DNA from: Raja brachyura
Lineage: Eukaryota
Assembly: GCA_963514005.1 (NCBI GenBank)
Contig: OY740803.1
Location: 20,088,001 to 20,152,000, forward strand
Reading direction: 5' to 3'
DNA: 64,000 nucleotides
Made by a program: the position numbers and the translations under genes. Each line of letters begins with the position of its first letter. Positions within the stretch are counted from its first letter, which is position 1. Below the pieces are notes generated by a model. It was not told where the DNA came from, did no database searches, and saw nothing but the letters and a program-made list of their open reading frames with translations. Positions 2,267 through 59,985 of this stretch are shown here, in pieces.

Positions 2267-2964
2267 CGTAAACCTCCCAATCATGAAAACAACCACTGGA
2301 CCTGAAATGAACGAGAGCCTGACGGCTGGGACAAAGTGAAAGTGCAGCTTTCCATTTGAGCTGCAGTCTATTGAGTGTCTGCGTTTATTTGTGTATGTTT
2401 GCCTCTGTGAAGTAATTCGTTCTTCTAAATACATTTTAATAATTAAAACATTTAAAAACATTTTAACTATGCGTAAGATGGAACTGCAGATGCTGGTTTA
2501 CACCGAAGATACACAAAGTGCTGGAGTAACAGCAGGTCAAACAGCATCTCTGGAGAAAAGGGAATAGGTGAGGTTTGGGGTGGAGACCCTTCTGTGCCTG
2601 ATGAAAGGTCGCCACCCGGAACGTCACCTCCTCCTTTTCTCCAGAGATGCTGCCTGACCAGTTGGGTTACTCCAGCACTTTGTGTAAACCTTTTAACGAG
2701 ACAATTGACGCAGTCTCCCACGTCGGTTAAGGGCTACTCCGTGAAGCAGCGAATGCCTTGTTTTCCGCGCATGGGGCGGTAGTTATTGCTTGCTCCCGAA
2801 TCTCCAATACTGAAACAGAAACCGCGGGCAAGAGGGCGAAGTATTTAAATCCGTGTTTCCCACCCTGCATCGGGTTTCATGGGGAGGTGAAGTGCGATCG
2901 GTCAGGATGGATGTGGTCGGCGGGGATTAAGCGCGGCACAGGATACATCATCGGCCTGGTGACG
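2267..2964. promoter_or_regulatory. Candidate bidirectional promoter with non-coding first exons
   Basis: CpG-enriched unique sequence. IRF-type AAGTGAAAGT at ~2334, ISRE-like GAAACAGAAACC at 2812-2823, GC box at ~2774, TATTTAAA at 2842. Donor on - strand (CG|gtaact at 2266) and on + strand (CG|gttagt at 2965). Confidence 0.4.
2470..2685. mobile_element. Fold-back (inverted dimer) Penelope-LTR-derived short element with degenerate hammerhead motif
   Basis: Left arm is the reverse complement of the right arm. Core ctgatgaaaggtcgccacccggaacgtc at ~2598-2625. Confidence 0.7.
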
Positions 2965-3254
2965 GTTAGTGGCCACGTTTTTCTTTTCGCAGAAAAAGTC
3001 ACTTTGTTGTGGTTAGGATGGGGTCACGGCAGAGGCGACTGTAGCAGTTTCACAGGTGAAACTGACGCCTGTGACGGGTGGGTGTGTGTGTGTCCCTGGT
3101 GTGTGTATGTGTGTAGCCGGCTGGGGACTCCTGAATATCGCCCTGACCTCGGCTTTAGGTGAAACTGCGCCAGATCTCCACACTAGTCACAAAGTGCTGG
3201 AGGAACTCAGTGGACAGACAGTGGTTTCGGGTCAGCAAGTGAAAGTTCCCGCAA

Positions 3255-16149: not shown

Positions 16150-16710
16150 GAATGAATGAATAAGTTTATTGGCCAAATATTCACATACAAGGAATTTGCC
16201 TTGGTGCTCCGCCCGCAAGTGACAACGACATACAGTGACGGTTAAGAATGACACATGAAACATTAAACATTAATAATAAAACACTATTGATTAAACATGA
16301 ATTAAATAAAATACCAGAGCATAAGGAGGCTACAGAATTTTGGTTATTGAGTAGAGCTATTACTCGTGGGAAAAAAGCTGTTTTTCCATCTGGCCCTGGC
16401 AGCTTTGACAGTCCGAAGTCACCTTCCAGAGGCAAGTGAGTTAAAGAGTTTGAGGCCAGGGTGAGAGGGGTCAGAGATGATCTTACCCACTTGCTTCCTA
16501 GCCCTTGCAGTGTACAGTTCGTCAATGGAGGGAAGGTTGCAGCCAATAACCTTCTCTGCTGATCGGATGATTTGCTGCAGCCTCCGGGCGTCATGCTTGG
16601 TAGCTGAGCCAAACCAGACCATGATGGAGAAGGTGATGACAGACTCTACGATGGCCATGTAGAATTGGACCATCATTGCCTGTAGCAGATTGTGCTTTCC
16701 TCCACTGCCA
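16150..16710 (-). mobile_element. Rex1/Babar-like LINE 3' fragment
   Basis: ORF 16419-16727 (FYMAIVESVITFSIMVWFG...RLQQIIRSAEKVIG...DPSHP) is the typical C-terminal region; (attc)n tail. Confidence 0.8.
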
Positions 16711-16884
16711 CATTTTGACTGGAACATTTAATTCTATTATTTTCAACAACCAAAATGTTAGTGCATTTTCTAACATACCAAGCTCAGGAGGCACAAGAAA
16801 AGTGGAATTGATTTTATGAGATCTGAAAGATAGTAACTTTTTTTTGTATTATCTTTATACCTGCAGGTGAACTGAATTCTGGAA

Positions 16885-16948
16885 ATGGATTTATGCCTCA
16901 CATTTTATCTTTATTGCATTCTACACTTATGCGTACCCTCTGCTGAAA
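16885..16948 (+). CDS. IgSF gene leader exon (exon starts 16867): MDLCLTFYLYCILHLCVPSAE
   Basis: Acceptor ttatacctgcag ending 16866, ATG at 16885, hydrophobic signal peptide, donor AA|gtaagt at 16949 (phase 1). Confidence 0.8.
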
Positions 16949-17713
16949 GTAAGTACCTAAAACCCAGAGGCCTGGGTTCGATCCTGACCTCGGCTGCTGT
17001 ATGTGTGGTGTTTGCAAGTTCCCCTTGTGACGGTGTGGGTTTCCTCTGGTGCTCTGGTTTCCTCCCACATCTCAAAAGACGGATATTCAGGTTAACTGGC
17101 CTCTGTAAATTGCCCATGACTTGTAGGGAGAGTAAGCGAAAGAGGGATAACATAGAACTAATATGAACATAGAACATAGAACTAAGATGAACGAGTGATT
17201 GATGGTTTGTGCAGATTTAGTGGGCCGAAAGACCTATTTCTACGCCATATTTCTAAACTAATAGAAGTTGATGGAAGTTTATGGATATGCAGGGAATGGA
17301 GGCATATTGTTCATGTGCAGGCAGATGAGGTTAGTTTATGTTGACAAGATGTTTGGCACATTTTAGTTTTTAGTTCAGAGATACAGCATACAATCAGCAT
17401 AGGCCCACCGAGCCTATGCCAACCATGATCACCCGTACACTAGTTCTATGTTATCCCACTATTGCACCCTGCATACTTAGGACAACTTACAGGCCAATTA
17501 AACTACAAACCCGCTCGTCTTTGGAATACAGGAGGAAACCAGAGAAAACTCACATGGTCACAGGGAGAACTTGCAAACTCCACACGGATAGCACCCAAGG
17601 TAAGGATCGAACCCGGGTCTTTGCCGCTGTGAGGCAGCAGCTCTACTGTTGCAGCACTGTGTTCTAAAAGGCCTGTTCCTCTGCTGTACTCATCTATGTT
17701 CTATGATTTTCAG

Positions 17714-18049
17714 CATTTTTGCATTTGGTTTGTGACAAATCAGTGACAGGAATTCTGCATGAGGATGCCACCCTACCATGCAAAAGTGATACAACAGGTC
17801 CAATTAACATCACACTAATAAAACTGCATCAAGATCAAACCCGTGATGAAAAATTGATCTTTAACACAAGTGAAAATGTTCGCAGAGGTCAGAATCGAAT
17901 CCAATTACGTTGTCAAGATGAATTGCATTGTCCACATGATCTGTCGCTGATAATCCACAAAACGGAGCTGTCAGATAACGGAACATATCAGTATATTGTG
18001 CGTGCAAAACATGGACATGACTCTAAATTAATTAATTTGATAATTGAAG
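17714..18049 (+). CDS. IgV-set domain exon of a B7/butyrophilin-like single-V membrane protein
   Basis: Acceptor gattttcag, 336 nt, phase 1-1, donor AG|gtgagt. Motifs VTG.LHEDATLPC, LSLIIHKTELSDNGTY and final L.I.G strand. Confidence 0.88.
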
Positions 18050-18949
18050 GTGAGTAATATTGTACTTCCTCTGCTTTTCTTTCATTTAAAAAATATTGGT
18101 TAGAATTAATTATTAATAAATTGCAGCTTTCCACTTCCAAAGCACGTGTGAGTTTGGTAAACTTATGCAATGTTGAGGATTACATTCAGAAAGTATTACC
18201 ACGGCATTAAAAAAAACCCCTCTATTTTAATTTAGTGGGCAGTACAGTGGCACAGCTGTAGTTGAGCAGCTGCCTCACAGCGCCAGAGAACCGGGTTTGA
18301 TCCTGACCTCGGGTGCTGTCTCTGTGGAGTTTGCATGTTCTCCCTATGACCACGTGGGTTTCCTCCGGGTGCTCTGGTTTCCTCCCACATAACAAAGTTG
18401 TGTGGGTTGTGGGGATTAATTAGTCTCTATAAAAGAAAGCCTCCCCCTAGTGTGCAGGGAGTGGATGAATAAGTGAGATAATGTGTGGGGAGGAACTGCA
18501 GATGCTGGTTTAAACAGAAAATAAACACAAAATGCTGGAGTAACTCAGCGGGCCAGGCAGTATCTCTGGAGAGAAGGAATGGGTGACGTTTCTGGTTGAG
18601 ACCCTTATCATAGAGTGATAGTATGGAATCGGGCCCATCAGCCCACCGAGCCCATGCCAATCATGATCACCCATAAACTAGTTCTGTGTTATCCCCCTTT
18701 GCGCCCTGCACACTTTGGGCAACTTACAGAGGCCAATAAATCTACAAACCCGCACGTCTTTGGAATACAGGAGGAAACCGGAGAAAACCCACGCGGTCAC
18801 ATTGTGAGCGTGCAAACTCCATACAGATAGCACCCAAGGTGAGGATCAAACCCAGGTCTTTGCCGCTGTGAGGCAGCAGCTCTACTGTTGCACCACAGTG
18901 TTCTAAAAGGCCTGTTCCTCTGCTGTACTCATCTTTCTATGATTTTCAG

Positions 18950-19272
18950 CATTTGTGAATTTGGTTTGTAACGAATCAGTGACAGAATACTGCATGAGGA
19001 TGCCACCCTACCATGCAAAATAGATACAACAGGTCCAATTAACATCACACTAATAAAACTGCATCAAGATCCAACCCGTGATGAAACATTGATCTTTAAC
19101 TCAAGTGAAAATGTTCGTAGAGGTCAGGATCGAATCCAATTACGTTATCAAGATCCATATGATCTGTCACTGATAATCCATAAAACGGAACTGTGAGATA
19201 ACGGAACGTATCTGTATACTGCGCGTACAGATCATGGACATGACTTTGCGCTCATCACTTTGATCATTGAAG
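18950..19272 (+). pseudogene. Disabled tandem duplicate of the IgV exon
   Basis: Highly similar to 17714-18049, including the upstream SINE and acceptor. Has a 1-nt deletion (acagaatactgc vs acaggaattctgc) and TCA>TGA at ~19194. Confidence 0.85.
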
Positions 19273-20236
19273 GTTACTCATCCACTCCCTGGTGGATGAG
19301 GAAGTGAGTGGATGAGTAAGTGAGATCATGTGTTGGGAGGAACTGCAGATTCTGGTTTATACGGAAAATAGACACAAAATGCTGGAGTAACTCAGCGGGC
19401 CAGGCAGCATCTGTGAAGCGAAGGAATGGGTGACGTTTCGGGTCGAGACCCTTAGTCATAGAGTGATACAGTGTGGAAATGGGCCCTTCGGCCTAACTCG
19501 CCCACACCGGCCAACAGTGTCCCAGCTACTCTAGTCCCACTTGCCAGCGCTTGGTCCATATCTCTCCAAACCTGTCCTATCCATATACCTGTCTTATTGT
19601 TTCTTAAATGATGGGATAGTCCCAGCCTCAACTACCTCCTCTGGCAGCTTGTTCCATACACCCAAGATCATTTGTGTGAAAAAGTCGCTCCTCCGATTCC
19701 TATTAAATCTTTTCTCCTTCACCTTGAACCTATGTCCTCTGGTCCTTGATTCCCCTACTCTGGGCAAAAGACTCTGTGCATCTACCCAATCTATTCCTCT
19801 CATGAAGATTCAGTTTACATAGTAAATGTTGTGAGAATTGAGAAAATAGAAGGTTTTGATGGAGAAATATCAGATATTGATAAATTGTGCATCAAAGTGA
19901 CCTTTGTGGATGACAAGTAGAGAAGTCTTATTATTGATACAGAAAGTTCATCAGTTTTCTGCTATTTGAAGAGAGCAAGGAGCTGTAATCTATCCAGTCA
20001 TTTCAAATGAAAGCTAAATAAATGTGAAGGAACTGGATGATATTTGGCATTTCTGGCTTGGTGCCGTCCAATCTGCAACTCCAAAGCCCCCTTATCCTGT
20101 ATCTACCTATCACTCACCAGGATTTGTCATGCCCCCACCTCTTTTCCGGCTTTTCCCCCTCCCTCCTGCAGTCTTAAGAAGCGTCCTGACCTGAAACTCC
20201 ACCGATCCATGTCTTCCAGAGATGCTGCGTGTGTTA

Positions 20237-20462
20237 AGGGCCTGTCCCACTTTCACGACCTAATTCACGACCTCTGCCGACTTTGCCCTTGAATCATACT
20301 CGCAGCATGGCCGTCACGAGGCCGTAGGAGGTTGTAGGTAGGTCGTAGCAAGCTGTGATGCTAGTCGTAGGTATTCATGGCATCAAGTAGGTCGGGGCGT
20401 TTTTTCTAGCATGATGAAAAATGTCCACGAGTAAAAAAGGTTGTGAAAGTGGAACAGGCCCT
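20237..20462. mobile_element. PIF/Harbinger-type MITE
   Basis: TIRs agggcctgtcccactttcacgacc / ggttgtgaaagtggaacaggccct, inserted at a TTA inside a Penelope-derived repeat. Confidence 0.75.
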
Positions 20463-21596
20463 CAACTCCGGCACTTTATTTTTGTTTGTAAACCAGCATC
20501 TACATTTCTTTGTTTTTCCGACTTTCATAAGGTTTCATAGGCACTTATACCTTTAATGGTATATATGGACATATGGAGTTGGCAGTGATGTCCCCGAGAT
20601 AAAAGTCCAGAAATCCTAGTACTGGAAATCTGCATTGAGGATATCTGTTGAGTGTGTTATTTGGCTTGGACACTCCATTTATAGCAGCTCCTACAACTAT
20701 GATCTCTAGATTTGCAGATAAGACTGAGTAATGGAGAACTCTTAGCACATATTGTATCTCAGTTTACTTTAATCTCATGGTTCATTTGAGACCTGATCTA
20801 TCATGTAAGAAAGCAGTGGATTTAATCTGTGTAGTGAGTCCTATCAATGCAAGCCGTTGTATAAAGAAAGCTGGGAAAACAATATTTGTAATGCTGCATC
20901 GAATAAAAATGAACTGCAGATCCTGGTTAGACACAAAATGCTGGAGTAACTCAGCGGGTCAGGCAGCATATCTGGAGATTTTTTTTTTAGTTTTGTTTAC
21001 AGCCCACCATGACCGAGCTCCATCTAATGTCTTTTGAATGCATCCAGTGAGTTGGCCTCCACTGGCTTTTGAGGTAGAGAATTCCACAAATTCACAACTC
21101 TCTGGGTGAAAAAGAGTTTCCTCATCTCGGTTCTAAATGGCCTTCCCCGTATTCTTAAACAGTGGCCCCTGATTCTGGACTCCCCCAACATCGGGAGCAT
21201 GTTTCCTGCATCTAACGTGTCCAATCCCTTAATAATTTATTTAAATTTTTATAAGACACCCATTCGTCCTTCTAAAGTCCAGTGCATACAAGCCCAGTTG
21301 TTCCATTCTTTCATCATATGACAGTCCCGCATTCCCGCCTCAACCTACACTGCACTCCCTCAACAATAAGAATGTACATCATCAAGTTAGGAGACCAAAC
21401 CTGCACACAATACTCCAAGTGTGGTCTCATCAAGGCACTGTACAACTGCATAAGGACCTATTTGTTCTTATACTCAAATTATCTCGTTATGAAGGCCAAC
21501 ATGCCATTAGCTTTCTTCATTGGTTGTTGTAGCTGCATGCCTACTTTCAGTGACTGATGTACAAGAACACCCAGGTCTCGTTGCACTTCTCCTTTT

Positions 21597-21930
21597 CCCA
21601 ATCTGACTTTTCTGTCCTGGGCCTCCTCCATTGTCAGAGTGAGGCCCAGCGAAAATTGGAGGAGCAGCACCTCATATTTCGCTTCGGTAGTTTACACGCC
21701 AGTGGTATGAACATTGCTTCTCTAACTTCAGTTAGCCCTTGCTTTCCCTATCCATCCCCTTCACCTTCCGTTCAACCACCAGTCTTAGTGTATCTGCCTA
21801 CATTCTATATTTGCCCCGCCCCCTCCAGTGACATCAGTCCGAAGAAGGGTCTCGACCCGAAACGTCGCCCATTCCTTCGCTCCTGAGATGCTGCCTCACC
21901 CGCTGAGTTACTCCAGCATTTTTGGGTCTA
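21597..21930 (+). mobile_element. Penelope 3' fragment (GIY-YIG C-terminus plus LTR with hammerhead-like motif) inserted in CR1
   Basis: RKLEEQHLIFRFGSL matches 58030-58090; ccgaagaagggtctcgacccgaaacgtc at ~21839. Confidence 0.8.
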
Positions 21931-22270
21931 CCATTCAAATAATAATCTGCCTTCTTGTTCTTGCCACCAAATTGGATAACCTCATATTTATCCACATTAT
22001 ACTGCATCTGCCATGCATCTGCCCACTCATCCAACCTATCGAATTCACCCTGCATCCTCATTGCATCATCTTCACAGTTCACCCTGCCACCCAGCATTGT
22101 GTCATCTGCAACTTTGCTAATGTTACTTTTAATTCCTTCAACTAAATCAATAATATTTATTGTGAATAGCTGCACTCCCAGTATCGAGCCTTGTGACACC
22201 CTGCCAATCACTACCTGTCATTCTGAAAGGGAACCGTTAATCCCTACTCTTTGTTCCTGTCTGACAATCA

Positions 22271-22990
22271 TAGAAACAGAAACATAGAAAATAGGTGCAG
22301 GAGGAGGCCATTCGGCCCTACGAGCCAGCACAGCCATTCATTGTGATCATGGCTGATCGTCCCCAATCCATAACCCGTGCCTGCCTTCTCCTCATATCCC
22401 TTGATTCCACTAGCCCCTAGAGCTCTATCTAACTCTCTCTCTTAAATCCATCTAGTGATTTGGCCTCCACTGCCCTCTGTGGCAGGGAATTCCACAAATT
22501 CACAACTCTGTGGGTGAAAAAGTTTTTTCTCACCTCAGTCTTAAATGGCCTCCCCTTTATTCTAAGACTGTGGTCCCTGGTTCTGGATTCACCCAATATT
22601 GGGAACATTTTTCCTGCATCTAGCTTGTCCATTCGTTTTATAATTTTATATGTTTCTATATTCCCCCTCATCCTTCTAAACTCCAGTGAATACAAGCCTA
22701 GTCTTTTCAATTTTCATCATATGACAGTCCCACCATCCCAAGGATCAATCGTATGAACCTACGCTGCCCTGCCTCAATCACAAGGATGACCTTCCTCAAA
22801 TTAGGAGATCAAAACTGTACACAATACTCCAGATGTACTCTTACCAGAGCCCTATACAAATGCAGAAGAACCTCTTTACTCCGATACTGAAATCCTCTTG
22901 TTATGAAGGCCAACATTCCATTAGCTTTCTTCACTGCCTGCTGTACCTGCATGCCAACTTTTAGTGACTGGTATACAAGGACAATGCTGT
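22271..22990 (-). mobile_element. 5'-truncated CR1 nested inside the larger CR1
   Basis: Has its own (tagaaaca)n tail; flanked by acaatca at 22264-22270 and 22991-22997. Confidence 0.8.
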
Positions 22991-25100
22991 ACAATCAATT
23001 TTCAATCCATGTCAATACCCGACCCCCAATACCATGTGCTCTAATTTTGTCCGCTAATGTGGGACCTTATCAAAGGCTTTTTGAAAGTCCAGATACACCA
23101 CATCTACTGGCTCCCCCTTATCCATTCTACTTGTTACATCCTCAAAAAATCCCAAAAGATTAGTCAAGCAAGATTCCCCCTTTGTGAATCCATGCTGACT
23201 TGGACTGATCCTGCTACTGATATCCAAATGCGCTGCGATTACATCTTTAATTATCGACTCCAGCATCTTCCACACCACCAATGTCAGGCTAACTGGTCTA
23301 TAATTCCCTGCTTTGTCTCACCCTCCTTTCTTTAAAAAGTGGGATAACATTAGCTACCCTACAATCCATAGGAACTTATCCAGAATCTATAGAACATTGG
23401 AAAATGATCACCAATGCCTCCACAATTTCTAAAGCCACTTCTTTAAGTACCCTGGGATGTAGACCACCAGGCCCTGGGGATTTATCAGTCTTCAGTCCCA
23501 CCAGTCCACCCAACACCATTTCCTGACTAATGTGAATTTCCTTCAGTTCCTCCATCACCCTAGATCCTCTGTCCCCGAATACATCTAGGAGATTGTTTGT
23601 GTCTTCCTTAGTGAAGACAGAACCAAAGTACCTGTTCAACTTGTCTGCCTTGTTCCCCCTAATAAATTCACCTGTTTCCGTCTTCAAGGGACCAACATTT
23701 GTCTTTACTAATCTTTTCCTCTTCACATACCTAAAGAAACTTTTACTATCTTGCTTTATATTCTTGGCAAGCTTACCTTCGTACTTCATCTTTTCAGTCA
23801 CCTTCTGTTGTTCTTTAAACATTCACCAATCCTCTGGCTTCCCGCTCATCTTTGCTATGTTATACGTCTTCTCTTTTTGTTTTATACTGCCCTTGACTTC
23901 CCTTGTCAACCACAGTTGCCTCTTACCCCCCTTACCTCCTAATAGTTCCTTTACCTTGAGTTCTCTCATCAAATCGATTCATTGCACAACACTAAATCCA
24001 GAATTACCTTCTCCCTGGCAGACTCCAGTACAAGCTGCTCTAAAAATCCAGCGCGGAGGCACTCCACAAACACCCTTTCTTGGGGTCCAGTACCAACCTA
24101 ATTTTCCCATTCGACCTGCATATTAAAATCTCCCATAACCACCATAGCATTACCTTTGTTACATGCAAATTTTAACTCCTGATGCAACTTGCACCCTATC
24201 TCCAGGCTACTGTTTGGGGGGCCTGTATATTAGTTTCTGCCCTCCCATTAGGGTCGTTTTGCCCTTACAATTTCTCAGTTCTATCTACAATGATCTACAT
24301 CTGATTCTATGTCACCCCTCGCAAAGGACTGAATATCATTCCTTACCAACAGAGCTACCCTACCCCCTCTGCACATCTGTCTGTCTTTTTGTTAGGACGT
24401 ATACGCCCGAATATTCAGTTCCCAGCTCCAATCCTCGTGCAGCAATGTATCTGTAATTCCCACAACATCATACCTACCAATCTCTAACTGAGCCCCAAGC
24501 TCATCTACTTTATTTCTTATACTTCGCACATTCATATATAACACTTTTAATTTGGTATTCACCTCCCCTCTCACACCGGTTCCTATTTCACTTGACTTTA
24601 CTCTCTTATCCCTTCTTGAACTTTCCGTCCCATTAATTCGGGTGTCTTTCATAACTTTACCTGTACTCTCTTTCCCTTTAACTCCATCCTTATATTTCCA
24701 ATTTGTCGACTCCTCCCCCCGGCTATTTAGTTTAAACCCACCCGTGTAGCACTAACAAACCTACCTGCCAGAATGTTGGTCCCCCTCCAGTTAAGGTGCA
24801 ACCCGTCCCTTTTGTATAGGCCCCCTTACCCCAGAAGAGATTCCAGTGGTCTATAAATCAGAATCCCTGCCCCCTGCATCAGCCGCTCAGCCACACATTC
24901 AGATCCCCTATCTCCCTGTTTCTGCCCTCACCAGCACGAGGTACTGTAAGCAATCCAGAGATAACCACCCTAGAGGTCCTGCTTTTCAGCCTTCTTCTGA
25001 AATCACTAAACACACATTGCCGAACCTCCTTCCTCTTCTTCCTGATGTCATTAGTGCCAACTTCCACAACCACTTCCGGCTGATCCCCTTCCCCTTTGAG

Positions 25101-25898
25101 CAGGCACGGAAATCGGTATCAAAATATGGGGGGGACACCATTTCTTGGCGGCCGCGCGAGCATGTGCACATTCACTCACACGCTAGGCATCAGAGGCTTC
25201 AGCCGTGGGCCCTTTGAACGGTAATTTCAGCTCAATCCAGCGCTAAATGCAGCTCAACTCTGCCTGTCTCGCCGGGTTAACCTACAGCCCTGCCTGGACT
25301 GACGGGACACCAGCCTGGAGTCGTGGAGCTAGCGCTGCTTCTCCGCGCTGGCTGTAAACCTGGGCCATATTTCCCTTAAATCCAGCCAGGGTTGGAGTTT
25401 AACCTGGCAGGACAGGCAGCGTTGAGCTAGATTTAGCGTTGCTTCTCTGCGCTGGCTGTGGGCCTGGGGGCACAGCTCCCGTCTGACTCCCGACGTCTCT
25501 GGCCACCCCCTGGAGATGGTCCAGTGGTAATTTGGCAGCGATTGTAGCGCCGGAGAGCTGGGATTGATCCTGGCTGCGGATGAGGCGCAGGTCTGTGTCC
25601 AGGGCTGCCAAGAGTGTTTTGGCACATCTCCCTCCTCCAATGACCACGTTCTATCCTCAGTCCCATCCCCCCCCCCCCCCCCCCCACTTCCACCTCTGAC
25701 CGACACGACCCTCCTCCAATGATCGTGCTGAATCATCATGTCCCGCCCCCATTGCCTGCTGACCGACGTCTCTCTCGTCCAATCGGCGCCCTCGATCAGC
25801 AGTCCCACCCCCACTGTCTCGCGGAAAGCGTAGATTTCACCAGGTTTTAAAATCCGGATTACAAAAAATCCCCCCCCCCCCCCGGATTTCCGCCCCTG
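25101..25898. mobile_element. Non-autonomous hAT element inserted in CR1 ORF1
   Basis: TIRs caggcacggaaatc / gatttccgcccctg; 8-bp TSD cctttgag / cccttgag. Confidence 0.8.
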
Positions 25899-27122
25899 CC
25901 CTTGAGGATGCCCAGCAATCAATTCAAGACGTCTTGAACACTGGCACCAGGGAGGCAACACACCATCCTCGAATCTCCTATCTGTACTTCCCACTATTGA
26001 GTCAACTACCACTACGGCGTTACCTGAGCCAAAGCGCTAGGATTTAATTGAAAGACCTGTCGCCGCACGGACTGGAAGTGTTTTAATTTTGCAAACATAA
26101 TGAAAATGTTAAATGTTTGCGTCATTTTTTGCTCTGATTGCAATCAGGCAATAATAGGTTAACTTTGACTATAAAATAAAAATCATTGCAGTGAGTGAGT
26201 CAACCTAAAATCCTTCAAGCTACAAACTGAGTTCCATCTCTGAAGAATGACAGTGATAAATACTCAATGATTCAATGATACTTTAATGTTGCACATATCT
26301 AGGTACAATGAAATGCTTTGTTTAGCAAACAACCTTGTAAAATTATATGGCAGGCTTCACCGAGCCAGCACACAAGTGTTGCAATGTTTTGCTGCCGGCT
26401 AAGTTACAAAACTGCGCCGAACAGTCTTATCTACTGCCTGCAGCCGCAAGTGGCAACAGCCCACCCCCCTCTTCCGCCGAATCCCCCCCTTTGATCTCGG
26501 TGATACCCCCCCCACCCCCAGCCAGGTCCCCCTTCGTTCTCTGCGTCCCCTGCTGGGTATCTCTCCAAGGGCCCTCCATCTTCTCCGACACCTCCTCTGT
26601 GAGCCTTGCTGCTTGATGTGAGGCATGGTTTTTTTCCATGCTTCTAGACTCCCCATAATTTTCATAAATTAGTTATGATTTACAATGGAATTTCGGTGAG
26701 CCCCGCATTGGGTTTAACCTTCATCCAGAGTTGAGTCTCCATTAGTATTGTCCTTATGTCCATGTCTCAGAATCCTGTCCATTCTGTGTCACAAGTGCCT
26801 TGTATAAATAAATTATAAAATCTATATTATCAAGAAGAAATCAGAGCAGCACAGTGGTTCAGTGGTATAGTTGGTGACTGACAACACCAGAGACCCGGGT
26901 TCGATCCCGACGACAGTAGTTGTCTGTACGGAGTTTGTACGTTTTCCCTGTGATTGCATGGGTTTCCTCCAGGTGCTTCTGTAAATTGTCCCGAGGGTGT
27001 AGAATAGTGCTAATGCAAGGGGATAGCACGGACTCAGTGGGCCAAAGGACCTGTTTCCCTGCTGCATCTCTAAAGTCTATTCGGTATTTTGAGACACGTT
27101 AATTATTTATTTTCTATTTCAG

Positions 27123-27266
27123 GACCTGAGCACTCGGAAACTAATGCAGCAACACACCAAGAGAAACCAAAAGAAAAGAAGAGAATTGGTGTTGGTCTTA
27201 TTCTTTCCATGGTTTTCTTAATGCTTCTGATATTCTCAGCAATGTTTTACTACAAGTTATCTCGAG
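27123..27266 (+). CDS. Stalk + transmembrane exon of the IgV gene (PEHSETNAATHQEKPKEKKRIGVGLILSMVFLMLLIFSAMFYYKLSR)
   Basis: Acceptor ttttctatttcag, 144 nt, phase 1-1, donor AG|gtaaac, ~22-aa hydrophobic helix. Confidence 0.82.
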
Positions 27267-29244
27267 GTAAACTATTAATTCTTATAATTGAAAGGATAAA
27301 ACTGATTTTTGCATAGCAGTTTTCGAAGAATCATTTTGTTTAAAGATACAGCATGGAAACAGGCCCTTCGGCCCACCAGCTCCACACTGACCATCGATCG
27401 GCTGTTCACATTAGTTCTATGTTATCCCACATTTGCATCCACTCCCTAACACAGACTTCTCTTGGTCCCTGGCACTGTTATCTCCTGAATTTATATATCA
27501 TATGCAGCCAGCTATAAAATGGAGAGTTAACTTTTTATTTTTGGAGCACGTTATGTATGGGCGGCACAGTGCGACAATTTTTTATAGAGGCCAATTAAAC
27601 CTACAAACCTGCACATCTTTGGGATGTGGGAGGAAACCGGAGCACCCAGAGGAAACCCACACGGTTATATGGAGAACGTGCAAACTCCACACAGACAGCA
27701 CCCGAGGTCAGAATTGAAGCCGGGCCTCTGGTACCGTGAGGCAGCAGCTCCACTCGCTGTGCCACTGAGCAACCTATTTTCTCTTTATTCGAATCTTGTG
27801 TGATTATAGATCTCACTAATCTATTCTCTGCCCACACATCATTGTCTCCATCACGGGAATCAGTTTAGTGAACAACCACTCAATCCTTACATAACAAACA
27901 CATTCCTTCTCACATCAATGGGACCAAAATGGCACATGAAACAGATTGGATTTCAGCCAGATCTTGTGCAGTTGCACAATTCAGCCTTGCTCCTGTACTC
28001 AAACCTTCTTGTAAAGGAGGCCTTGCCAGCTGAAGTGGCCACGACGTGGGTGGCCATTGGGTGGCTAGTGGCACATGGGTAGAGTTACTGCCTCACAGTG
28101 CTTGCAGCACCAGAGACCAGGGTGCGATCCTGACTACGGGTACTGTCTGATATTTTTAGTTTCCTCCCACAATCCAAAGACATACAGGTATGTAGGTTCA
28201 TTGGCTTGGTGTATGTGTAAATTGTCCCTAGTGTGTACAGGCTTGTGTTAAAGAGCAGGGATCACTGGTCGGTGCACCAAAGGGCCTGTTTCCACGCTGT
28301 AACTCTAAACTAAACTAACCTAAACTGAATGCTGCTTTCAATGGTTCAATAGTTTCTTTATTTTCGTATGTACCCAGGTACAGTTAAATACATTTTTTGC
28401 ATACAACTCAGCAAGACTATCCACGTACGTAAGCACCATTCCCAGTTTGCACAGAATTTAGAACAGTGCACTGTTTGAATGCAAGAGGTGTCATGTTACA
28501 GTCCCAGCTGCAGCTGGCCACAAAGGCCCGTTGCAGCCATCGCTTCAATCCGTGTCGTCCCGCGATCCGATGTCCCTCTCCTTGCACGGTTGCCTTATCC
28601 CTTGTTCCTGGGGGGGGGGGGGGGGGGGGGACGCCTCCCCAATGGAACTTGAGGGAGTAGAACATAAGACCCCCAGTTCTTCTTACTGGGCCCTTGGTCC
28701 AGCAACCGCTGTCGTCTCCTTCTATCCTCCTCCTCTCGCAGCGGGTGAGCTGGGCCTATTGTTGGGATGGGCAGTGCCTCGCAGGGGCCATTCATCCAGT
28801 GTCCACCGCCGTTTCTCTCCATCCTCCTCACCGGGCGGTTTCTGAATTCCCCCATTCCACGGCGGGTGAGTCAGGCCTGTTGGCACGTGGCTGCGGTCTG
28901 CCAGTATTCAATCTCAACAATTGGTGCACGTGGACACCAGATCATTGCACATTTCCTTTTGCCAGTCTATCATTGACTTGGATCATAATGCCTTCCTGTT
29001 TTAGAGTACCAATGTAAATAACCTCACTATTATCCACAGTAAACTCCATTAGCCTTACATTGGCCCATTCGCCTAACACCTCGAGACACGTCTAGAGTTT
29101 AAAAAAGATGAGAGTGTGGTGGTAGACAGGTGTGTGACATGGTGCATGGTTATGAAGCAATGCTCTCTAGGAAATAATCTTTCAGCTCTAACCTACTGTT
29201 AACCTGCCATTACTTGAATAATAATGTTGTGATTTTCTCTAAAG

Positions 29245-29289
29245 CACCGATGAGGAGATTTTCTGAAACATCGCATTCAAATTTAATAG
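29245..29289 (+). CDS. Cytoplasmic mini-exon (APMRRFSETSHSNLI)
   Basis: Acceptor gattttctctaaag, 45 nt, phase 1-1, donor AG|gtatgt. Confidence 0.65.
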
Positions 29290-30017
29290 GTATGTCATTT
29301 TTTTTTAAACAAAATGTTTTACAATGTCAATTAAGAGCGCCTACTTTAATTAGAACGAGGAACATGGAATGGTGTTGCATGGGAACAGGCCCTTTGGCCA
29401 ACAATGTATGCGCAGACCATGTTGCCAATCTAAATTCATTCCATCAGCCCGGACATTGTATATATCCCTCCATTTTCATCCTGACCAAATCCTATCTAAA
29501 CGCCTCTTAAATGTTGCTTCCAACACTTCCCCTGGTTGTGTGTTCCAGGCCCTTACCGCTGTGTTAAGAAAACTCTTTTAAACTATCCCCCTGTCAGCTT
29601 AAAGCTACAGGCTGTAATATTTGACATTTCCACACAGAGAAAAAGGCTGACTATCTACCCGCTCATTATTCTATAAACCTCTATCAACCTCCATCAAACC
29701 TCACTTAGCGTGCAATGCTCCAGAGAAAACAATCCATGTTTGTTCAATCTCTCCTTTTAGAATTTAGAACATTCTTTATTCAATCCAAAATCCAGGTATT
29801 CTCACCCTCTCCAACACTCCCGCTTCTTTTCTGCAGTACGGCAACAAGATCTGCGCACAATACTCCAAATGTAACGTCACCAATATTTTGCGCAGTTACA
29901 ACCTGACCTCCGGAATTATCAACACCCTCACCGATGAAGGGAACTATGCCTTCTCTACCAGCTTGACTACTTGAGTGTCACTTTCTAGGAGCTATGAACT
30001 TGCACGCTAAGATCCCT

Positions 30018-30119
30018 TGAAGCCTGAAGAAAGGTCTCGACCGGAAATATCACCTATTCCTTTTCTCCAGATGTGCTGTCTGACCCACTGAGTTACTCCA
30101 GCTTTTTGTGTCTATCCCC
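30018..30119 (+). mobile_element. Short hammerhead-motif Penelope-derived insertion with 9-bp TSD
   Basis: aagatccct at 30009-30017 and 30120-30128; core ctgaagaaaggtctcgaccggaaatatc. Confidence 0.75.
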
Positions 30120-30609
30120 AAGATCCCTCTGTACATTAGTGCTCCTAAGAGTCCTATCATTTATCGTATACATTCCTCTTGCATTTGACTTCCCAAAATG
30201 AAATCTTTGGGATGTGGGAGGAAACCAGAGCACCCAGAGGCAGCCTACACGGTAACAGGGAGAATGTGCAAACTCCACACAGACAGCACTCGAGGTTAAG
30301 TTCACAACTGGGTTCACTGGCACTGCGGGCCAACAGTTCTACTAGCTGTGCCACTGTACTGCCATTTATTTCCTGATGGATGACGCAGAGTTGAAGTGAC
30401 AAGACTTTACATGATCTGCAAACTAAATTCTTTTATCAAGTTAAATTTCAGAAACAAGTGTTAGATTTGGATATTAAAAATCCTCTTGTCTGTTTTCATA
30501 ATCATTCACATAAATTAGCAATATCATCACGTCTCGATATTTCCACCACAGCTCAAAGTACTGATAAATCACAATTCAAACAGCTAATTATATTTTACTT
30601 GTTTCCAAG

Positions 30610-30617
30610 CCAATTGA
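30610..30617 (+). CDS. Terminal coding exon of the IgV gene (A-N-stop) followed by AT-rich 3' UTR
   Basis: Acceptor ttttacttgtttccaag; phase-1 join gives GCC AAT TGA; unique AT-rich sequence follows. Confidence 0.5.
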
Positions 30618-31192
30618 CTGAGATCTGATCCTTCAGAGAAGAAGGGTGAATGAAGAGTGTATTAAACGGAGCAGAAATAGCAGGAAGAGACTTGACATTC
30701 TGAAGATTATGATCAGGCGTAACTCAAGTAAAAAAGAAAGATAACCTTTCTATATGATTACTCAAATTTCTTGGCAATGTTGTAAATCTTTGATGACTAA
30801 GAAAATATCATTATCATTAAAAAAAATTTTTTGACAATTTTCAACGTGTTTTTATTGTAATATGAAATTGACAAGTGCTGATAGTTTAAACATGACATTC
30901 TTTCTTGCATTCTAAATCCAAGTTCAGACTTATCCCATCAGCCAGATAAACACCCAGCCTTAACTTAATAGACACAAGAGTCACAGGTACAGCTACGTGC
31001 TGCCTTGTTTTATGCTCACTAGTGTATTAGGACCATGTTAGAGCAGGAGATTAACACAGTGATGAATGAAAGGTGGGCAAGTAGTTGTACATGCAACCTG
31101 GAAAAATAATAACCCAAAACAATGTGTGTTATGTGCAATGTCCCTTCAAATACTGTCAAATTTATATTCATGTGTACTGCACATCCTATGCT

Positions 31193-31663: not shown

Positions 31664-34621
31664 CTAGACTAAGTGGGACCCATTGCGTCCCAGCATCACA
31701 CAGGAGGGCTGGTCCCCCAACGCAATATTCCACCTCTCCACCAATTCCAATGTTGAATATCGGTGGCCAGTGGGGGGGGGGGGGGGGGGGTCGGGTTTGG
31801 AGTGCTAGTATGGGTGTTGTACGCTGAAGGGACTGGTTTCCAGAGGGCTAGTATGGACATTGTGGGCCGAATGGATTCTTGGGCTGATGGCTCAGTCACT
31901 CAAGCCTGTTGTGCTGGCAGCTCACTCTCTTGCGGCTGGTGGCCTCGCAGTTGACACGGCTATTCCTTGAAATTTCATTGCAAGCAGGGTGCAAGGGCAC
32001 CAAATTCAAGTGCAGTTTCATATCATTTCAAGCAGGGTGTAAGTCCACTAAAGACAGCGAGTCGTGACCTCTCCCTCCCCCCATCTCGCAGAGACTGAGC
32101 CACGCCCACACTTCCAGGTTTTATAGTCCCCCCACGTCCCACCAGAAGGAGTGTGACCTTCATGGTGTGATTGACAGGAGAGAGAACCTCAACATTTGCT
32201 AAACACTAATAACTCTTTTATTTTTCACCAATGAGAAATATCCTTGGCACCTGATGAGCAGAGGGGGACTCTGAGTAAGATGGCCAAAAATCACAGCCGT
32301 ACGTGGTAGCATGTTTTCTAAAATCAATATAAAGCACAAACAGGAAGTGGTCAAGATTAGACGTTTAATTATATAGAAGGCAGCTCTAATTAGGCAAGGC
32401 AGCTCTAATTAGGCAAGGCAGCTCGCTTTAGCACTTGCAAAACCAAAGGAAAGGCATCTCGCTTCAACACATTTCAAAACCAAAGGCAACGCAGCTCACT
32501 TTAGCACCTTCAAAACCAAAGGCAAGACAACTCAATTTAGCACTTTCAAAACCAAAGGCAATGTAGCTCGCTTTAGCACTTTCAAAACCAAAGGCAACAC
32601 AGCTATAGCACTTTCAAACCAAAACACAATTTTGCATTTTCAAACTACATTTTCAAACCACATAAAGGGCACTGACAGGTCAGTAAAACCACTCACAGTT
32701 TAGTAGACATGTGTTCAGAGTTAGTCACAGCTCAAAGTGAGAATTGTGACCTCTTGCTCCCCCATCTTGCAGAGAACTGAGGCACCTCCACACTTCCGGG
32801 TTTTATAGTCCCCCCGGAAGGGGCGTGGCCCTCAGGAGAGAGAATCTCAACATTATTTAAACACTAATAACTCTTTTATTTTTCATCTATGGGAAAAATC
32901 CTTGACACCTGATGAGTGGAGGGGGACTCTGAGTAAGATGGCCAAACATCACAGCCGTACGTGGTAGCATTCTTTCTAAAATCAATATCAAACGCAAACA
33001 GGAAGTGGTGAAGATTAGACTTTTAATTATATAGAAGGCCAGGGAGTTCTAATTAGGCAAGGCAGCTCGCTTTAGTACTTTCAAAACCAAAGGCAAGGCA
33101 GCTCGCTTTAGCACTTTCAAAACCAAAGGCAAGGCAGCTCACTTTAGCACTTTCAAAACCAAAGGCAAGGCAGCTCGCTTTAGCACTTTCAAAACCAAAG
33201 GCAAGGCAGTTTGCTTTAGCACTTTCAAAACCAAAGGCAACACAGCTCACTTTAGCATTTTCAAAACCAAAGGCGACACAGCTCACTTTAGCATTTTCAA
33301 AACCAAAGGCAACACAGCTTGCTTTAGCACTTTCAAAACCAAAGACAACACAGCTTTACCACTTTAAACCAAAACACACTTTTGCATTTCAAACTACATT
33401 TTCAAACCACATTAAGGGCACTGACAGGTCAGTAAAACCACTCACAGTGTAGTAGACATGTGTTCAGTGTTAGTCACAGCTCAGACTGAGGATTGCGATC
33501 TCTAGCTCCCCCATCTTGCAGAGAACTGAGGCACCTCCACACTTCCGGGTTCTATAGTCCCTCCGGAAGGGGCGTTGCCTTCAGGAGAGAGAATCTCAAC
33601 ATTATTTAAAGACTAATAACTCTTTTATTTTTCATCGATGGGAAAATTCCTTGGCACCTGATGAGCGGAGGGAGACTCTGAGTAAGATGGTCAAAGATCA
33701 CAGCCATACGTGGCAGCGTACTTTCTAAAATCAATATCAAGCGCAACCAGGAAGTGGTCAAGATTAAACTTTTAATTATATAGAAGGCAAGGCAGCTCTA
33801 ATTAGGCCAGGCAGCTCTAATTAGGCCAGGCAGCTCGCTTTAGTACTTTCAAATCCAAAGGCAAGGCAGCTCACTTTCACACTTTCAAAACCAAAGGCAA
33901 GGCAGCGCGCTTTAGCACTTTCAAAACTAAAGACAAGGCAGCTCGCTTTAGCACTTTCAAAACCAAAGGCAAGGCAGCTCGCTTTAGCACTTTCAAAACC
34001 AAAGGCATGGCAGCTCGCTTTAGCACTTTCAAAACTAAAGACAAGGCAGCTTGCTTTAGCACTTTCAAAACCAAAGGCAACACAGCTCGCTTTAGCACTT
34101 TCAAAACCAAAGGCAACACAGCTTGCTTTAGCACTTTCAAAACCAAAGGCAACACAGCTTGCTTTAGCACTTTCAAAACCAAAGGCAACACAGCTTTAGC
34201 ACTTTCAAACCAAAAGACACTTTTGCATTTTTAAACTACATTTTCAAACCACATTAAGGGCACTGACAGGTCAGTAAAACCACACAGTTTAGTAGACATG
34301 TGTACAGTATTATTTACAGCTCAGACTGAGAATTGCGACCTCTCGCTGCCCCATCTTGCAGAGAACTGAGGCACCTCCACACTTCCGGGTTTTATAGTCC
34401 CTCCGGAAGGCGTGTGGCCTTCAGGAGAGAGAATCTCAACATTTTTTAAACACTAATAACTCTTTTATTTTTCATCGTTGGGAAAATCCTCTTGTCCTGT
34501 GCAGCGGTGGGGGACTCTGAGTAAGATGGCCAAAACTCACAGCCATAAGTGGCAGCGTTTTTTCTAAAATCGACATACAGACAACAGGAAGTGGTCAAGA
34601 TCAGACTTTTAGTAATATAGA
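31664..34621 (-). mobile_element. Non-autonomous composite Helitron
   Basis: - strand begins A|TCTATATTACTAAAAG and ends with hairpin gggacgcaatgggtccc + acttagtCTAG|T. No TSD. Four tandem modules. Confidence 0.8.
32380..34215. repeat. Three arrays of a 30-bp minisatellite (gcagctcgctttagcactttcaaaaccaaaggcaag-type) within the Helitron
   Basis: Arrays at ~32410-32625, ~33055-33375 and ~33830-34215. Confidence 0.9.
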
Positions 34622-37369: not shown

Positions 37370-40300
37370 ATAGACAATAGACAATCGACAATACAGTAGG
37401 TGCAAGAGTAGGCCATTCGGCCCTTCGAGCAAGCACTGCCATTCACTGGGATCATGGCCGATCACCCTGTTCCTGACTTCTCCCCATATCCTTTTCCTCA
37501 TCTCTGTTCTAAAAAGGTTTTTCTACATCTCCTTTCTAAATGGCCCACCCCTTATTATTAAACTGTGGAACCTGGTTCTGGATTCCAACATCGGGAGCAT
37601 GTTTCCTGCCTCTAGCGTGTCCAATCCCTTAATAATCTTATATGTTTCAATAAAATTAGATCCCCTCTCGTCCTTCTAAATTCCAGTGTATACAAGCCCA
37701 GTCGCTCCATTCTTTCAACATATGACAGTCCCGCCATCCTGCGAATTAACCTCGTGAACCTACGCTGCACTCCCTCAATGTCAATAATGAAATTCCACAC
37801 ATTTGGAGACCAAAACTGCGCACAATACTCCAAGTGTGGTCTCACTAGGGCCCTGTACAACTGCAGAAGGACCTCTTTGTCCGATACTCAACTCTTGTTA
37901 TGAAGGCCAACATACCATTCGCTTTAGAAACATAGAAACATAGAAAAATAGGTGCGGGAGTAGGCCATTCGGCCCTTCGAGCCTGCACCGCCATTCAATG
38001 TGATCATGGCTGATCATCCAAATCAGTATCCCGTACCTGCCTTCTCTCCATACCCCCGATCCCTTTAGCCACAAGTGCCACATCCAACGCCCTCTTAAAT
38101 ATAGCCAATGAACTGGCCTCAACTACCTTCTGTGGCAGAGAATTCCAGAGACTCACCACTTGCTGTGTAAAGAATGTTTTCCTCATCTCGGTCCTAAAGG
38201 AATTCCCCCTTATTCTTAGACTGTGACCCCTTGTTCTGGACTCCCCCAACATCGGGAACAATCTTCCAGCATCTAGCTTGTCCAACCCCTTAAGAATTTT
38301 GTAAGTTTCTATAAGATTCCCCCTCAATCTTCTAAATTCCAGCGAGTACAAGCCGAGTCTATCCAATCTTTCCTCATATGAAAGTTCTGACATCCCAGGA
38401 ATCAGTCTGGTGAATCTTCTCTGTACCCCCTCTATGGCAAGAATGTCTTTCCTCAGATTTGGAGACCAAAACTGTACACAATACTCCAGGTGTGGCCTCA
38501 CCAAAACCCTGTACAACTGCAGTAGAACGTCCCTGCTCCTATACTCAAATCCTTTCGCTATGAATGCTAACATACCATTTGCTTTCTTCACTGCCTGCTG
38601 CACCTGCATGCCTATTTTCAATGTGTTAAAGAAGGAACTGCAGATGCTGGAGAATCGAGGGTTACACAAAAAGCTGGAGAAACTCAGCGGGTGCAGCAGC
38701 ATCTAAGGAGCGAAGGAGATAGGCGACGTTTCGGGTCGAGACCCTTCTTCATAACCTCACATTTATCCACATTATACTGCATCTGCCATGCATCTGCCCA
38801 TTCACTCAGCCTATCCAAATCACCCTGCAGCCTCCAAGCATCCTCCTCACACCTAACTATACCCCCCAGCTTGGTGTCATCTGCAAATTTGGAGATGTTG
38901 CATTGAATTCCCTCGTCCAAATCATTAATATATATTGTAAATAGCTGGGGTCCCAGCACCGAGCCTTGCGGTACCCCACTAGTCACTGCCTGCCATTCTG
39001 AAAAGGACCCGTTTACTCCTACCCTTTGCTTCCTGTCTGCTAGCCAGTTCTCTATCCACATCAATACTGAACCCCCAATACCATGTGCTTTAGGTTTGTT
39101 TGCTAATCTCTTATGCGGGACCTTGTCGAAAGCCTTCTGAAAGTCTAGATATAACACATCCACTGGTTCTCCCTTATCCACTCTACTAGTTACATCCTCG
39201 AAAAATTCTATCAGATTTGTCAGACATGATTTACCTTTTGTAAATCCATGCTGACTTTGTCCAATGATTTCACCACTTTCCAAATGCGCTGCTATCCCAT
39301 CTTTAATAACTGACTCTAGCAGTTTCCCCAGTACCGATGTTAGACTAACTGGTCTGTAATTCCCCGCTTTCTCTCTCCCTCCTTTTTTTAAAAGTGAAAT
39401 TACATTAGCTACCCTCCAATCCTCAGGAACTACTCCAGAATCTAAGGAATTTTGAAAAATGCATCCACTATTTCTGTGGCTACCTCCTTGAGTACTCTGG
39501 GATGCAGACTATCTGTCCCTGGGGATTTATCGGCCTTCAATCCGTTCAATTTACCCAACACCACCTCCCGGCTAACCTGGGTTTCACTCAGTTCCTCCAT
39601 CTTATTTGACCCCCGTTCCACTGCTATTTCCGGCAGATTATTTATGTCTTCCTTAGTGAAGACAGAACCAAAGTAGTTATTCAATTGGTCTGCCATGTCC
39701 TTGTTCCCCATGATCAATTCACCTGTTTCTGACTGCAAGGGACCAACATTTGTTTTAACTAGTCTCTTTCTCTTCACATATCTATAAAAACTTTTGCAGT
39801 CAGTTTTTATGTTCCCTGCCAGTTTCCTTTCATAATCTATTTCCCCTTTCCTAATAAAGCCCTTTGTCCTCCTCTAAAGGGCAGAAAACACTAGTGGGAG
39901 TTGTGTACAGGCCACCTAACAGTAGTATTGGAGTTGGGGATGGATTCTGAATTTCTCCCAGTCCTCCGGTAGGCTGCTTTTTCTGGCCAATTTGTATGCC
40001 TCATCTTTTGTTTTTATACTATCCCTGATTTCCCTTGTAATCCATTGGTGCACCACCTTCCCTGATTTATTCTTTTGCCAAACTGGTATGAACAATTTTT
40101 GTACTTCATCCATGCAGTCTTTAAATGCCTTCCATTGCACATCCACTGTCAACCCTTTAAGAATCACCTGCCAGTCTATCTTGGCCAATTCACATCTCAT
40201 ACCTTCAAAGTTACCTTTGTTCAAGTTCAGAACCCTTGTTTCTGACTTAATTTTGTCACTCTCCATCCTAATGAAGAACTCAACCATATTATGGTCACTC

Positions 40301-41325
40301 TTGCCCAAGGGGCCACGCACAACAAGACTGCTAACTAACCCTTCCTCATTACTCAATACCCAGTCTAGAATAGCCTGCTCTCTCGTTGGTTCCTCCACAT
40401 GTTGGTTGAGAAAACTATCCCGCATACATTCCAAGAAATCCTCTTCCTCAGCACCCCTGCCAATTTGATTCACGCAATCTACATGCAGATTGAAGTCACC
40501 CATTATAACCATGTTACCCTTGTTGCACGCATTTCTAATTTCCTGTTTGATGCCATCCCCAACTCCAATACTACTGTTAGGTGGCCTGTACACAACTCCC
40601 ACTAGTGTTTTCTGCCCTTTAGAGTTTCTCAGCTCTACCCATATCGATTCCACATCCCCCACGCTAATGTCCTTCCTTTCTATTGCATTAATCTCCTCTC
40701 TCACCAGCAACGCTACCCCACCTCCTTTTCCTTTTCATCTATCCCTCCTGAATATTGAATATCCCTGGATGTTCTGCTCCCAGCCTTGGTCACCCTGGAG
40801 CCATGTCTCCATGATCCCAACTATAGCATAGTCATTAATCGCTATCTGCACCTTCAACTCATCCACCTTATTACGAATGCTCCTCGCATTGAGACACAGA
40901 GCCTTCAGGCTTGTTTTTACAACACTCTTACTCCTTATACAATTATGTTGACAAGTGGCCCCTTTCACATCGATCCCTATTACACTTGGCCATACTCTCC
41001 TATCCCTTTGTGAGCTTTCTTTCCCGTTAATTCTGGGGTCATTAACCACCCCTTTACTCTCTTTCCCTTTAACTCCATCCTCGACTATCCCATTTGACAC
41101 CCCACCCCCCTTATTCAGTTTAAAACCATCCGTGTAGCAGTGGCAAACATGCCGGCCAGAATGCTGGTCCCCCACCTGTTAAGATGCAATCCGTCCCTTT
41201 TGTACAGTTCCCCCTTACTCCAAAACAGATCCCAGTGATCTAAGAATCTAAATCCCTGCCCGTGCACCAGCTCCTCAGCCACACATTAGGGTCCCATATC
41301 TCCCTGTTCCTGCTCTCGCCAGCAT
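37370..41325 (-). mobile_element. CR1 LINE cluster: short copy 37370-37924 abutting a long EN-RT copy 37925-41325
   Basis: ORFs 39916-40710 (EN: GVVYRPPN, MGDFN, LGKSDH), 38684-39283 (RT: YLDFQKAFD, PQGSVLGP, KFADD) and 38004-38702; tails (gacaata)n and (tagaaaca)n. Confidence 0.92.
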
Positions 41326-46100: not shown

Positions 46101-46123
46101 TCCAAGGCCTTAGAATGGTCTGG

Positions 46124-48160: not shown

Positions 48161-48174
48161 GTTATGCAGCACCA

Positions 48175-59579: not shown

Positions 59580-59985
59580 AGAGAAAGTCCGGAGATCTGG
59601 GGAGAGCGAGGTTGTTAAAACAAACGGGAGGGAGGGATTTCCATGACCACAGGAATAGCTCAGGAATTTCCCCGAATGATGGTTTCAGTTCGTTGGGACG
59701 TGTGTGAGCGAGCAGTCAGCTTGACCTTCCTTTCCTCTCCAGTCCTCACTTGTCCACGGTGCGTTCTGCTGGCTACCTGGCGTCGGATTACCTGCAGGTT
59801 TAACAGCAAGGACTACTGCAAAAGGCACAGACTCACGTGAGTTCTGCTTGTAGAGCAGAACCATTCACCGCCGTCTCCGCTTCAGAACAGTCAGTCAGAA
59901 GCGAAAGTCAGGAAACGGAAAGTCGATGAGAGAGAGAGATTGAAGCCAGCGGTCGCCAATATCGCAGGGTGACGGGGAGCTCCGG
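59580..59985 (+). promoter_or_regulatory. Candidate NF-kB/IRF-responsive promoter and non-coding first exon of a downstream gene
   Basis: GGGATTTCC at 59634, GGAATTTCCC at ~59663, GGTTTCAGTTC at ~59681, GAAACGGAAAGT at ~59912, TCACGTGA at ~59833; CpG-rich; donor GG|gtaagt at 59986. Confidence 0.5.

Follow-up and report, generated by a model that had tools for sequence, protein, structure and literature searches.

A core of cysteine, tryptophan and cysteine is the signature of the V-set immunoglobulin (IgV) domain, and V domains that do without its canonical disulfide bond are known from CD2, CEACAM and Siglec proteins. The closest described systems are the B7 ligands, whose ectodomain is described as an IgV followed by an IgC domain (PMC11599192). 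We analyzed a gene in a stretch of 64,000 nucleotides from the skate Raja brachyura (contig OY740803.1; called the window below) that encodes a membrane protein with one V domain, which has Tyr in place of the strand F Cys and Leu in place of the core Trp. On balance, we lean towards reading its product as a type I glycoprotein with one IgV, of B7-like descent and likely a co-signalling ligand, in which a bond between Cys28 and Cys44 would replace the canonical bond between strands B and F. By itself the window gene is unremarkable, an orthologue of skate genes that are annotated but have no characterized product. The interest lies more in the rerouting of the V core across a whole family, and in the diversity of the first V domain (V1) of skates, than in this copy.

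Gene model and encoded protein

The window gene has five coding exons on the forward strand with AG/GT ends; all introns are GT-AG and in phase 1, and the joined frame gives 198 amino acids (aa) and a stop. This model bears out a sequence-only reading, made earlier from the DNA letters, which had proposed five phase-compatible exons for a product of ~198 aa with a leader, a V domain, a stalk with a transmembrane (TM) segment, and a tail that has RRFS but lacks a tyrosine motif. The leader exon encodes the signal peptide (16885–16948, aa 1–21; 91% identity to the Leucoraja leader) and holds part of the 5′ untranslated region (16867–16884); the acceptor AG before it ends at 16866, and one or more further 5′ exons would lie upstream. 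It is followed by the IgV exon (V1; 17714–18049), which scores as a Pfam V-set domain (1e-08) and exceeds the curated cut-off, and by the exon for the stalk and TM segment (27123–27266, aa 134–181), recognized by hydropathy (hydrophobic span ~155–177) and by 87% identity to Amblyraja over the TM part. The exon for the cytoplasmic tail with RRFS (29245–29289) was placed by the exon model and by likeness to orthologues. The last coding exon with the stop (30610–30617) gives a C-terminus that agrees with the orthologues, and its ending, NLIAN, is common to the RefSeq orthologues and supports so short an exon. A longer last exon (30552–30626) was rejected, as the orthologue C-termini give it no backing. 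Candidate polyadenylation signals (ATTAAA) lie 3′ of the last coding exon at 30661 and 30816.

The cysteines of the protein are at positions 4, 11 and 16 in the leader and at 28, 44, 88 and 94 in the V domain, and Trp is absent from the whole protein. Cys28 belongs to strand A and Cys44 to strand B, and Leu59 occupies the core Trp site. The F strand reads DNGTYQY, with Tyr115 (codon TAT, 17992–17994) at the site of the F-strand Cys. There are N-glycosylation sequons at N53, N72 and N110, and the tail measures ~20 aa. The kept B-strand Cys, the two core replacements, the extra Cys and the three sequons had all been noted earlier and were found as described. In an AlphaFold2 (AF2) model of the V exon, built from 30 sequences with a pLDDT (predicted local distance difference test) of 78.6, Cys28 falls on strand A, Cys44 on B and Tyr115 on F, and the top structural matches of the model are V-type folds.

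Sequencing reads from four runs were aligned to positions 16700–18300; no run is recorded as RNA, and one of the four, run X1, is probably RNA. X1 shows eight differences over the V exon, and in a 940-letter contig from it position 16948 runs straight on to 17714, with a GT..AG intron removed; the contig has 83 letters on the leader side of the joint and ~316 more further upstream. The exon 1–2 junction of the sequence-only reading is therefore seen in reads, and the other three rest on splice signals and orthologue proteins. The contig runs 204 letters beyond the V exon, and depth over the V exon stays single, which suggests that these letters probably hold no second V; the junction there is not seen. 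A DNA-type run matches 17807–18298 with no differences, and because this span includes Tyr115, the Tyr is not a sequencing error, in agreement with the sequence-only reading. Separately, a stretch at 2700–3100 on the forward strand does not look like repeat, has a site like an interferon-stimulated response element (ISRE) at 2812 (one mismatch), and could hold the upstream exon or exons of the X1 contig.

Skate orthologues and the dead second V exon

A search with the V exon matched six proteins among 51 candidates, three of them uncharacterized RefSeq skate proteins and three Logan clusters. The RefSeq orthologues, all annotated as "uncharacterized", are LOC116988133 of Amblyraja radiata (protein XP_032900532), LOC129708458 of Leucoraja erinacea and LOC144594901 of Rhinoraja longicauda. 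They share 64–75% V identity with the window gene (73–76% for V1 against the V1 of Leucoraja and Amblyraja) and have the leader, V signature, TM segment and tail found here. Orthologues that retain the Cys and Trp would have counted against the sequence-only reading; those found are likewise without the F Cys and the Trp, which is in its favor. In the long forms of these orthologues the V domain stands twice in tandem, and the second (V2), intact in Amblyraja and Leucoraja, is dead in the window. Single-V X2 isoforms are also annotated (197 aa in Leucoraja, 196 aa in Amblyraja). The earlier description as a single-IgV protein is thus true of the window gene and of the X2 isoforms, but comparison with relatives that are V+C or two-V places this as a derived, skate-level state. 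Two model ends, the C-terminus of P0033 and the N-terminus of P0047, match repeat-like stretches of the window and are possible annotation artefacts.

The dead second IgV exon (18950–19272) lies in a tandem duplicate (18636–19281) of 17398–18058, which takes in ~310 bp of the upstream intron and is 81–95% identical by segment. It has lost one base pair near 18985, carries a TGA stop at 19194–19196 and ends in a degenerate donor, GTTACT. Because it is closer to Amblyraja V2 (86.9% identity) than to Amblyraja V1 (71.0%), we regard it as the orthologue of the skate second V and not as a chance duplicate. With V2 dead, only the single-V form can be made here. The duplicate also reads Tyr at the F-strand Cys site, and the earlier view that this loss is old agrees with its presence across elasmobranch relatives. 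After the dead exon, 19273–19400 repeats 18456–18553 (92%), preceded by an apparent short inverted piece, which suggests that a repeat rearrangement removed the V2 donor and put repeat-derived sequence in its place. V1 and V2 are 80.4% identical in the window (with the dead V2) and 81.3% in Rhinoraja, as against 71–72% in Amblyraja and Leucoraja, and the higher likeness may reflect gene conversion. A codon count of V1 against the dead V2 gave 9 synonymous and 20 non-synonymous differences, the stop included; it is invalid as a selection test and was left unused.

The pair Cys88/Cys94 accompanies a four-residue insertion between strands D and E in V1 of the Amblyraja, Leucoraja and window types. 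Skate D-E loops carry two Cys in 12 domains, none in 11 and a single Cys in no domain. Since these Cys come as two or none, a small loop bond is likely, and Cys88–Cys94 would close the insertion. The earlier proposal of rewired disulfides stands as the best inference, in the form of an A-B pair; the CQDELHC pair is a recent addition to skate V1 and not the replacement bond.

Relatives in sharks, rays and bony fish

With a horn shark "PD-L1-like" protein as the query, 27 matches from sharks and rays were found among 537 candidates, and a profile search over 1.84 billion representatives added further members. The shark and ray relatives are IgV+IgC+TM proteins under the automatic names CD276-like, PD-L1-like, PD-L2-like and butyrophilin-like, with two to five paralogues per genome on one contig. 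Like the window gene they have the A/B Cys pair, no F Cys and mostly no core Trp (the best stingray match is 46% identical over leader and V), but they differ from it in having IgC. The A and B cysteines are kept at a spacing of 16 (Cys-x15-Cys) in 58 of 58 elasmobranch-type proteins from skates, rays and sharks. At the F-strand site, 55 distinct elasmobranch-type V domains have Tyr in 50, Phe in two, Ile in one and Cys in two.

In trees the window gene groups with the stingray and sevengill V+C proteins at 100/100 (the sevengill row being on a long branch), and IgC was therefore lost in skates after their split from stingrays. Neither an IgC exon nor a paralogue was found in the 64-kb window by tblastn or profile. 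The skate clade itself sits on a long branch. Two proteins, P0056 and P0057, are tandem arrays of five to nine family V domains, so that V multiplication recurs in what we call the A-Cys family.

Twenty of the profile-search matches were named, and they come from coelacanth, bichir, reedfish, sturgeon, bowfin, bonytongue, the eel group and other teleosts, one being zgc:174863. No tetrapod or chimaera name is among those 20, and no search was aimed at those groups. The suggestion of a lineage-specific family is not supported, as members range from sharks to teleosts and coelacanth. The bony-fish proteins (zgc:174863-like, or "CD276 antigen homolog") have an A Cys 15–16 residues before the B Cys, a V+C+TM makeup and a short basic tail; many keep the F Cys and Trp, and the window gene has neither. 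If the zgc:174863-like A-Cys family is defined informally by a B7-like V whose A Cys precedes the B Cys by 15–16 residues, the window gene belongs to it. During retinal regeneration in zebrafish, microglia/macrophages are among the cells with a listed enrichment of zgc:174863 (PMC7720500).

Traits were counted in 66 single-unit V+C proteins of 225–400 aa from the shark-query and profile searches. The A Cys is present in 64 of the 66 and the B Cys in all 66, including the 41 of 41 that have no F Cys. Among the 64 with A Cys, 23 have both F Cys and Trp, 38 have neither, three have a Trp nearby without F Cys (in one of these it misses the core site by a residue), and F Cys never occurs where Trp is absent. 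Many bony-fish members thus carry the A/B/F Cys triad and Trp; others have Tyr, Phe or Trp at the F site, Trp itself standing there in the coelacanth members. A coupling of F Cys and Trp is suggestive in these sequences, not shown, and the trait tree cannot separate gain from loss. The A-Cys family tree has weak deep branches and a single CD276-type row, on a long branch. One protein, P0166, is without the A Cys yet groups with the coelacanth members.

B7-like descent and proposed mechanism

A profile of 27 family members, set against solved structures, matched CD276 (3.7e-37), PD-L1 (4e-20), PD-L2 (7e-16), butyrophilin (6e-13) and CD86 (8e-09). PD-L1 was also the first fold match of a horn shark model (pLDDT 80.8), and the ESM Atlas neighbors fell in generic V-set or B7/BTN clusters. 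The B7/butyrophilin-like ancestry proposed from the sequence is therefore supported through the V+C relatives. The window gene has the B7 features of a type I membrane protein with a leader, an N-terminal IgV and a short tail, but not the canonical B-F disulfide or the C-strand Trp. Its action is most likely that of a B7 ligand; because two features of B7 are absent, IgC and the canonical core, we class it as B7-derived and not among the B7 members.

The pairing of Cys28 with Cys44 in place of the canonical B-F bond is inferred because no other pair is conserved in all the relatives, because the two are a fixed distance apart in sequence, and because the B Cys persists where it has no F partner. 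In antibody V domains the residue at position 6 faces the B-strand Cys across the sheet, and the two are equally far apart in sequence. In the proposed arrangement, Tyr115 would fill the core space left by the change from Trp to Leu, and the ligand would turn the front (GFCC′) sheet of its V domain towards a receptor carried by immune cells. The short tail without a tyrosine motif would suit a ligand better than a receptor that signals, and RRxS in it is a possible kinase site. The partner would be a V receptor of CD28-family type, and the binding face would be under diversifying pressure.

Variation of the outer V domain

Twenty-one Leucoraja-type two-V proteins (P0003–P0005, P0008–P0025) were compared, one from RefSeq and 20 from Logan records. 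Mean differences are 12.0% in V1, the outer domain, 1.7% in V2, the inner one, and 0.8% in the TM segment and tail. Ten distinct V1 sequences occur among the 21, amounting to about four divergent types and mosaics, while the inner V and the tail behind them hardly vary. Variable V1 sites make up 22 of 51 positions in BC, C, CC′, C′, F, FG and G and five of 57 elsewhere (Fisher p 4e-05, with sites that are not independent), and strands A, A′, B, D and E have none in 26. B7 ligands use that front face for their receptors. If these differences are allelic, a B7-type ligand so variable would be out of the ordinary.

A bolder proposal, which we hold possible and rather doubtful, would make the A-Cys proteins an unrecognized B7 subfamily of jawed fish with an A-B disulfide, masked by automatic names of the CD276, PD-L and butyrophilin kinds. 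Its core would have been dismantled repeatedly by way of a three-Cys intermediate, its members would be the ligands that orphan CD28-family receptors of fish still lack, and its skate member would be hyperpolymorphic at the receptor face. Several CD28-family receptors are described from cartilaginous and bony fish that are absent from humans, with a call for work on their ligands (PMC11599192), and the A-Cys family is a testable candidate set for them.

Alternative explanations

Several observations weigh against a B7-derived ligand with an A-B bond. The window gene is without the IgC typical of B7, which its stingray and shark relatives have. The V domain alone is closest by sequence to CAR and VSIG4 (E 0.03–0.2) and by fold to VSIG4, MOG, Nav beta2 and BTN3A1. 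The case for the Cys28–Cys44 bond is comparative. Six of the 21 Leucoraja-type V1 domains, all of one type, carry Cys at the F site again, without Trp, and sturgeon and sevengill members keep Trp with the F Cys absent. In the trait tree, drawn from 51 of the 66 proteins after 15 from elasmobranchs had been dropped, F Cys and Trp each change at least four times, and the only two independent pairs on starred branches give p 0.5. No more than 19 among 47 tails of the family carry the motif R[RK]x[ST]. The V1 diversity may, furthermore, mix species or paralogues across the 20 Logan records.

The best-surviving alternative, which we nevertheless think unlikely, is a pathogen-facing receptor or decoy, whose front face varies through binding of microbes or viruses and whose role as a B7 ligand is secondary or lost in skates. 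CEACAM N domains, whose front face is bound by microbes and viruses and varies, offer a precedent. A pathogen-facing role had also been raised in the sequence-only reading, and the V1 variability is at most an indirect hint of it. The mosaic V1 forms on an almost fixed V2 and tail, the restriction of variation to the front-face strands and loops, the long skate branch, the loss of IgC and the absence of a signalling tail all agree with it. A diversifying host receptor would, however, yield the same pattern, and the V1 records possibly come from several species.

We regard as distinctly improbable a homophilic or heterophilic adhesion molecule of the CAR/JAM/VSIG4 type, with a B7-like past and no co-signalling. 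It draws on the CAR and VSIG4 matches of V alone and on a cell adhesion role for zgc:174863, which is suggested from prediction alone (PMC7720500). Those matches are, however, weak, the sequence ones having E values of 0.03 or worse, and of a kind that V-set domains give in general, and the V+C relatives lead to B7-H3 and PD-L. The tails of CAR/JAM-type proteins are longer than the window tail, which we count against adhesion.

We give little credence to the same ligand function without an A-B bond, with Cys28 and Cys44 free, or Cys28 in an interchain dimer, and the hydrophobic core alone holding the domain. The three-Cys bony-fish members could use B-F, with the A Cys free to form a dimer, but a B Cys kept in all the V+C proteins without F Cys would be hard to explain if it were partnerless, and the elasmobranch spacing is fixed. 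That the gene is decaying, with IgC loss, a dead V2 and core changes as a route to a pseudogene, is suggested by the three V2 lesions and the fast-evolving skate clade, and is very improbable given a frame open over five exons, a spliced transcript in a relative (the X1 contig, if RNA), intact RefSeq orthologues in three skate genera, single-V isoforms among them, and core changes common to all sharks and rays examined.

Other features of the window

ISRE-like patterns number 15 in the window against 11.3 expected, a count reached in 17 of 100 shuffles, and we make no claim of interferon inducibility. The stretch at 59790–59990 on the forward strand is a possible first non-coding exon of the next gene, with an exact ISRE-like GAAACGGAAAGT at 59912–59923 and a GTAAGT donor at 59986. 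Arrays of a ~30-bp unit, inside a larger unit repeated about three times, occupy 32400–34600. Broken open reading frames lie at 45600–49500 and 38000–41200 on the reverse strand and at 55300–57900 on the forward strand; judging from their motifs, they are presumably a DIRS-type retroelement, a CR1-type long interspersed element and a Penelope-type element, respectively.

Comparison with known systems

Our literature search found no description of the A-Cys family nor of an A-B disulfide; an earlier naming in papers on B7 evolution is possible. B7-H3 (CD276), PD-L1 and PD-L2, which the V+C relatives match best in sequence and fold, share the short tail without a tyrosine motif, but they have the canonical Cys/Trp/Cys V core and IgC, and the window gene has neither. 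Butyrophilins have a cytoplasmic B30.2/SPRY domain; the ~20-aa window tail leaves no place for one, no such Pfam domain was found in the orthologues, and this identity was rejected. In CD2/SLAM and CEACAM N domains both canonical Cys are absent from the V domain, and these types were ruled out by the invariant B Cys of the family. Skate PD-L1 was likewise ruled out, as the Amblyraja PD-L1 of Kondo et al. 2025 is XP_032874294 and has a canonical core (PMC12151841). In Siglecs a conserved F-strand Arg is described as binding sialic acid (PMC8161119), and we set this type aside because V1 of the skate orthologues has Tyr or Asn where the window protein has Arg118.

The family offers a natural series for the rerouting of an immunoglobulin disulfide, from the Cys triad through A-B only to the revertant alleles. 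The nearest parallels are domain 2 of CD4 (CD4 D2), for which a cross-strand C-F disulfide and a stepwise gain and loss of Cys are described (PMC4354306), and titin, whose I-set B/F/G Cys triad is reported to prefer a non-classical pair (PMC5766482). In both, the canonical B-F bond is replaced by a neighboring pair, as we propose for the window V. CD4 D2 uses C-F and titin B-G, however, in other immunoglobulin sets, whereas the pair proposed for the window V domain is A-B.

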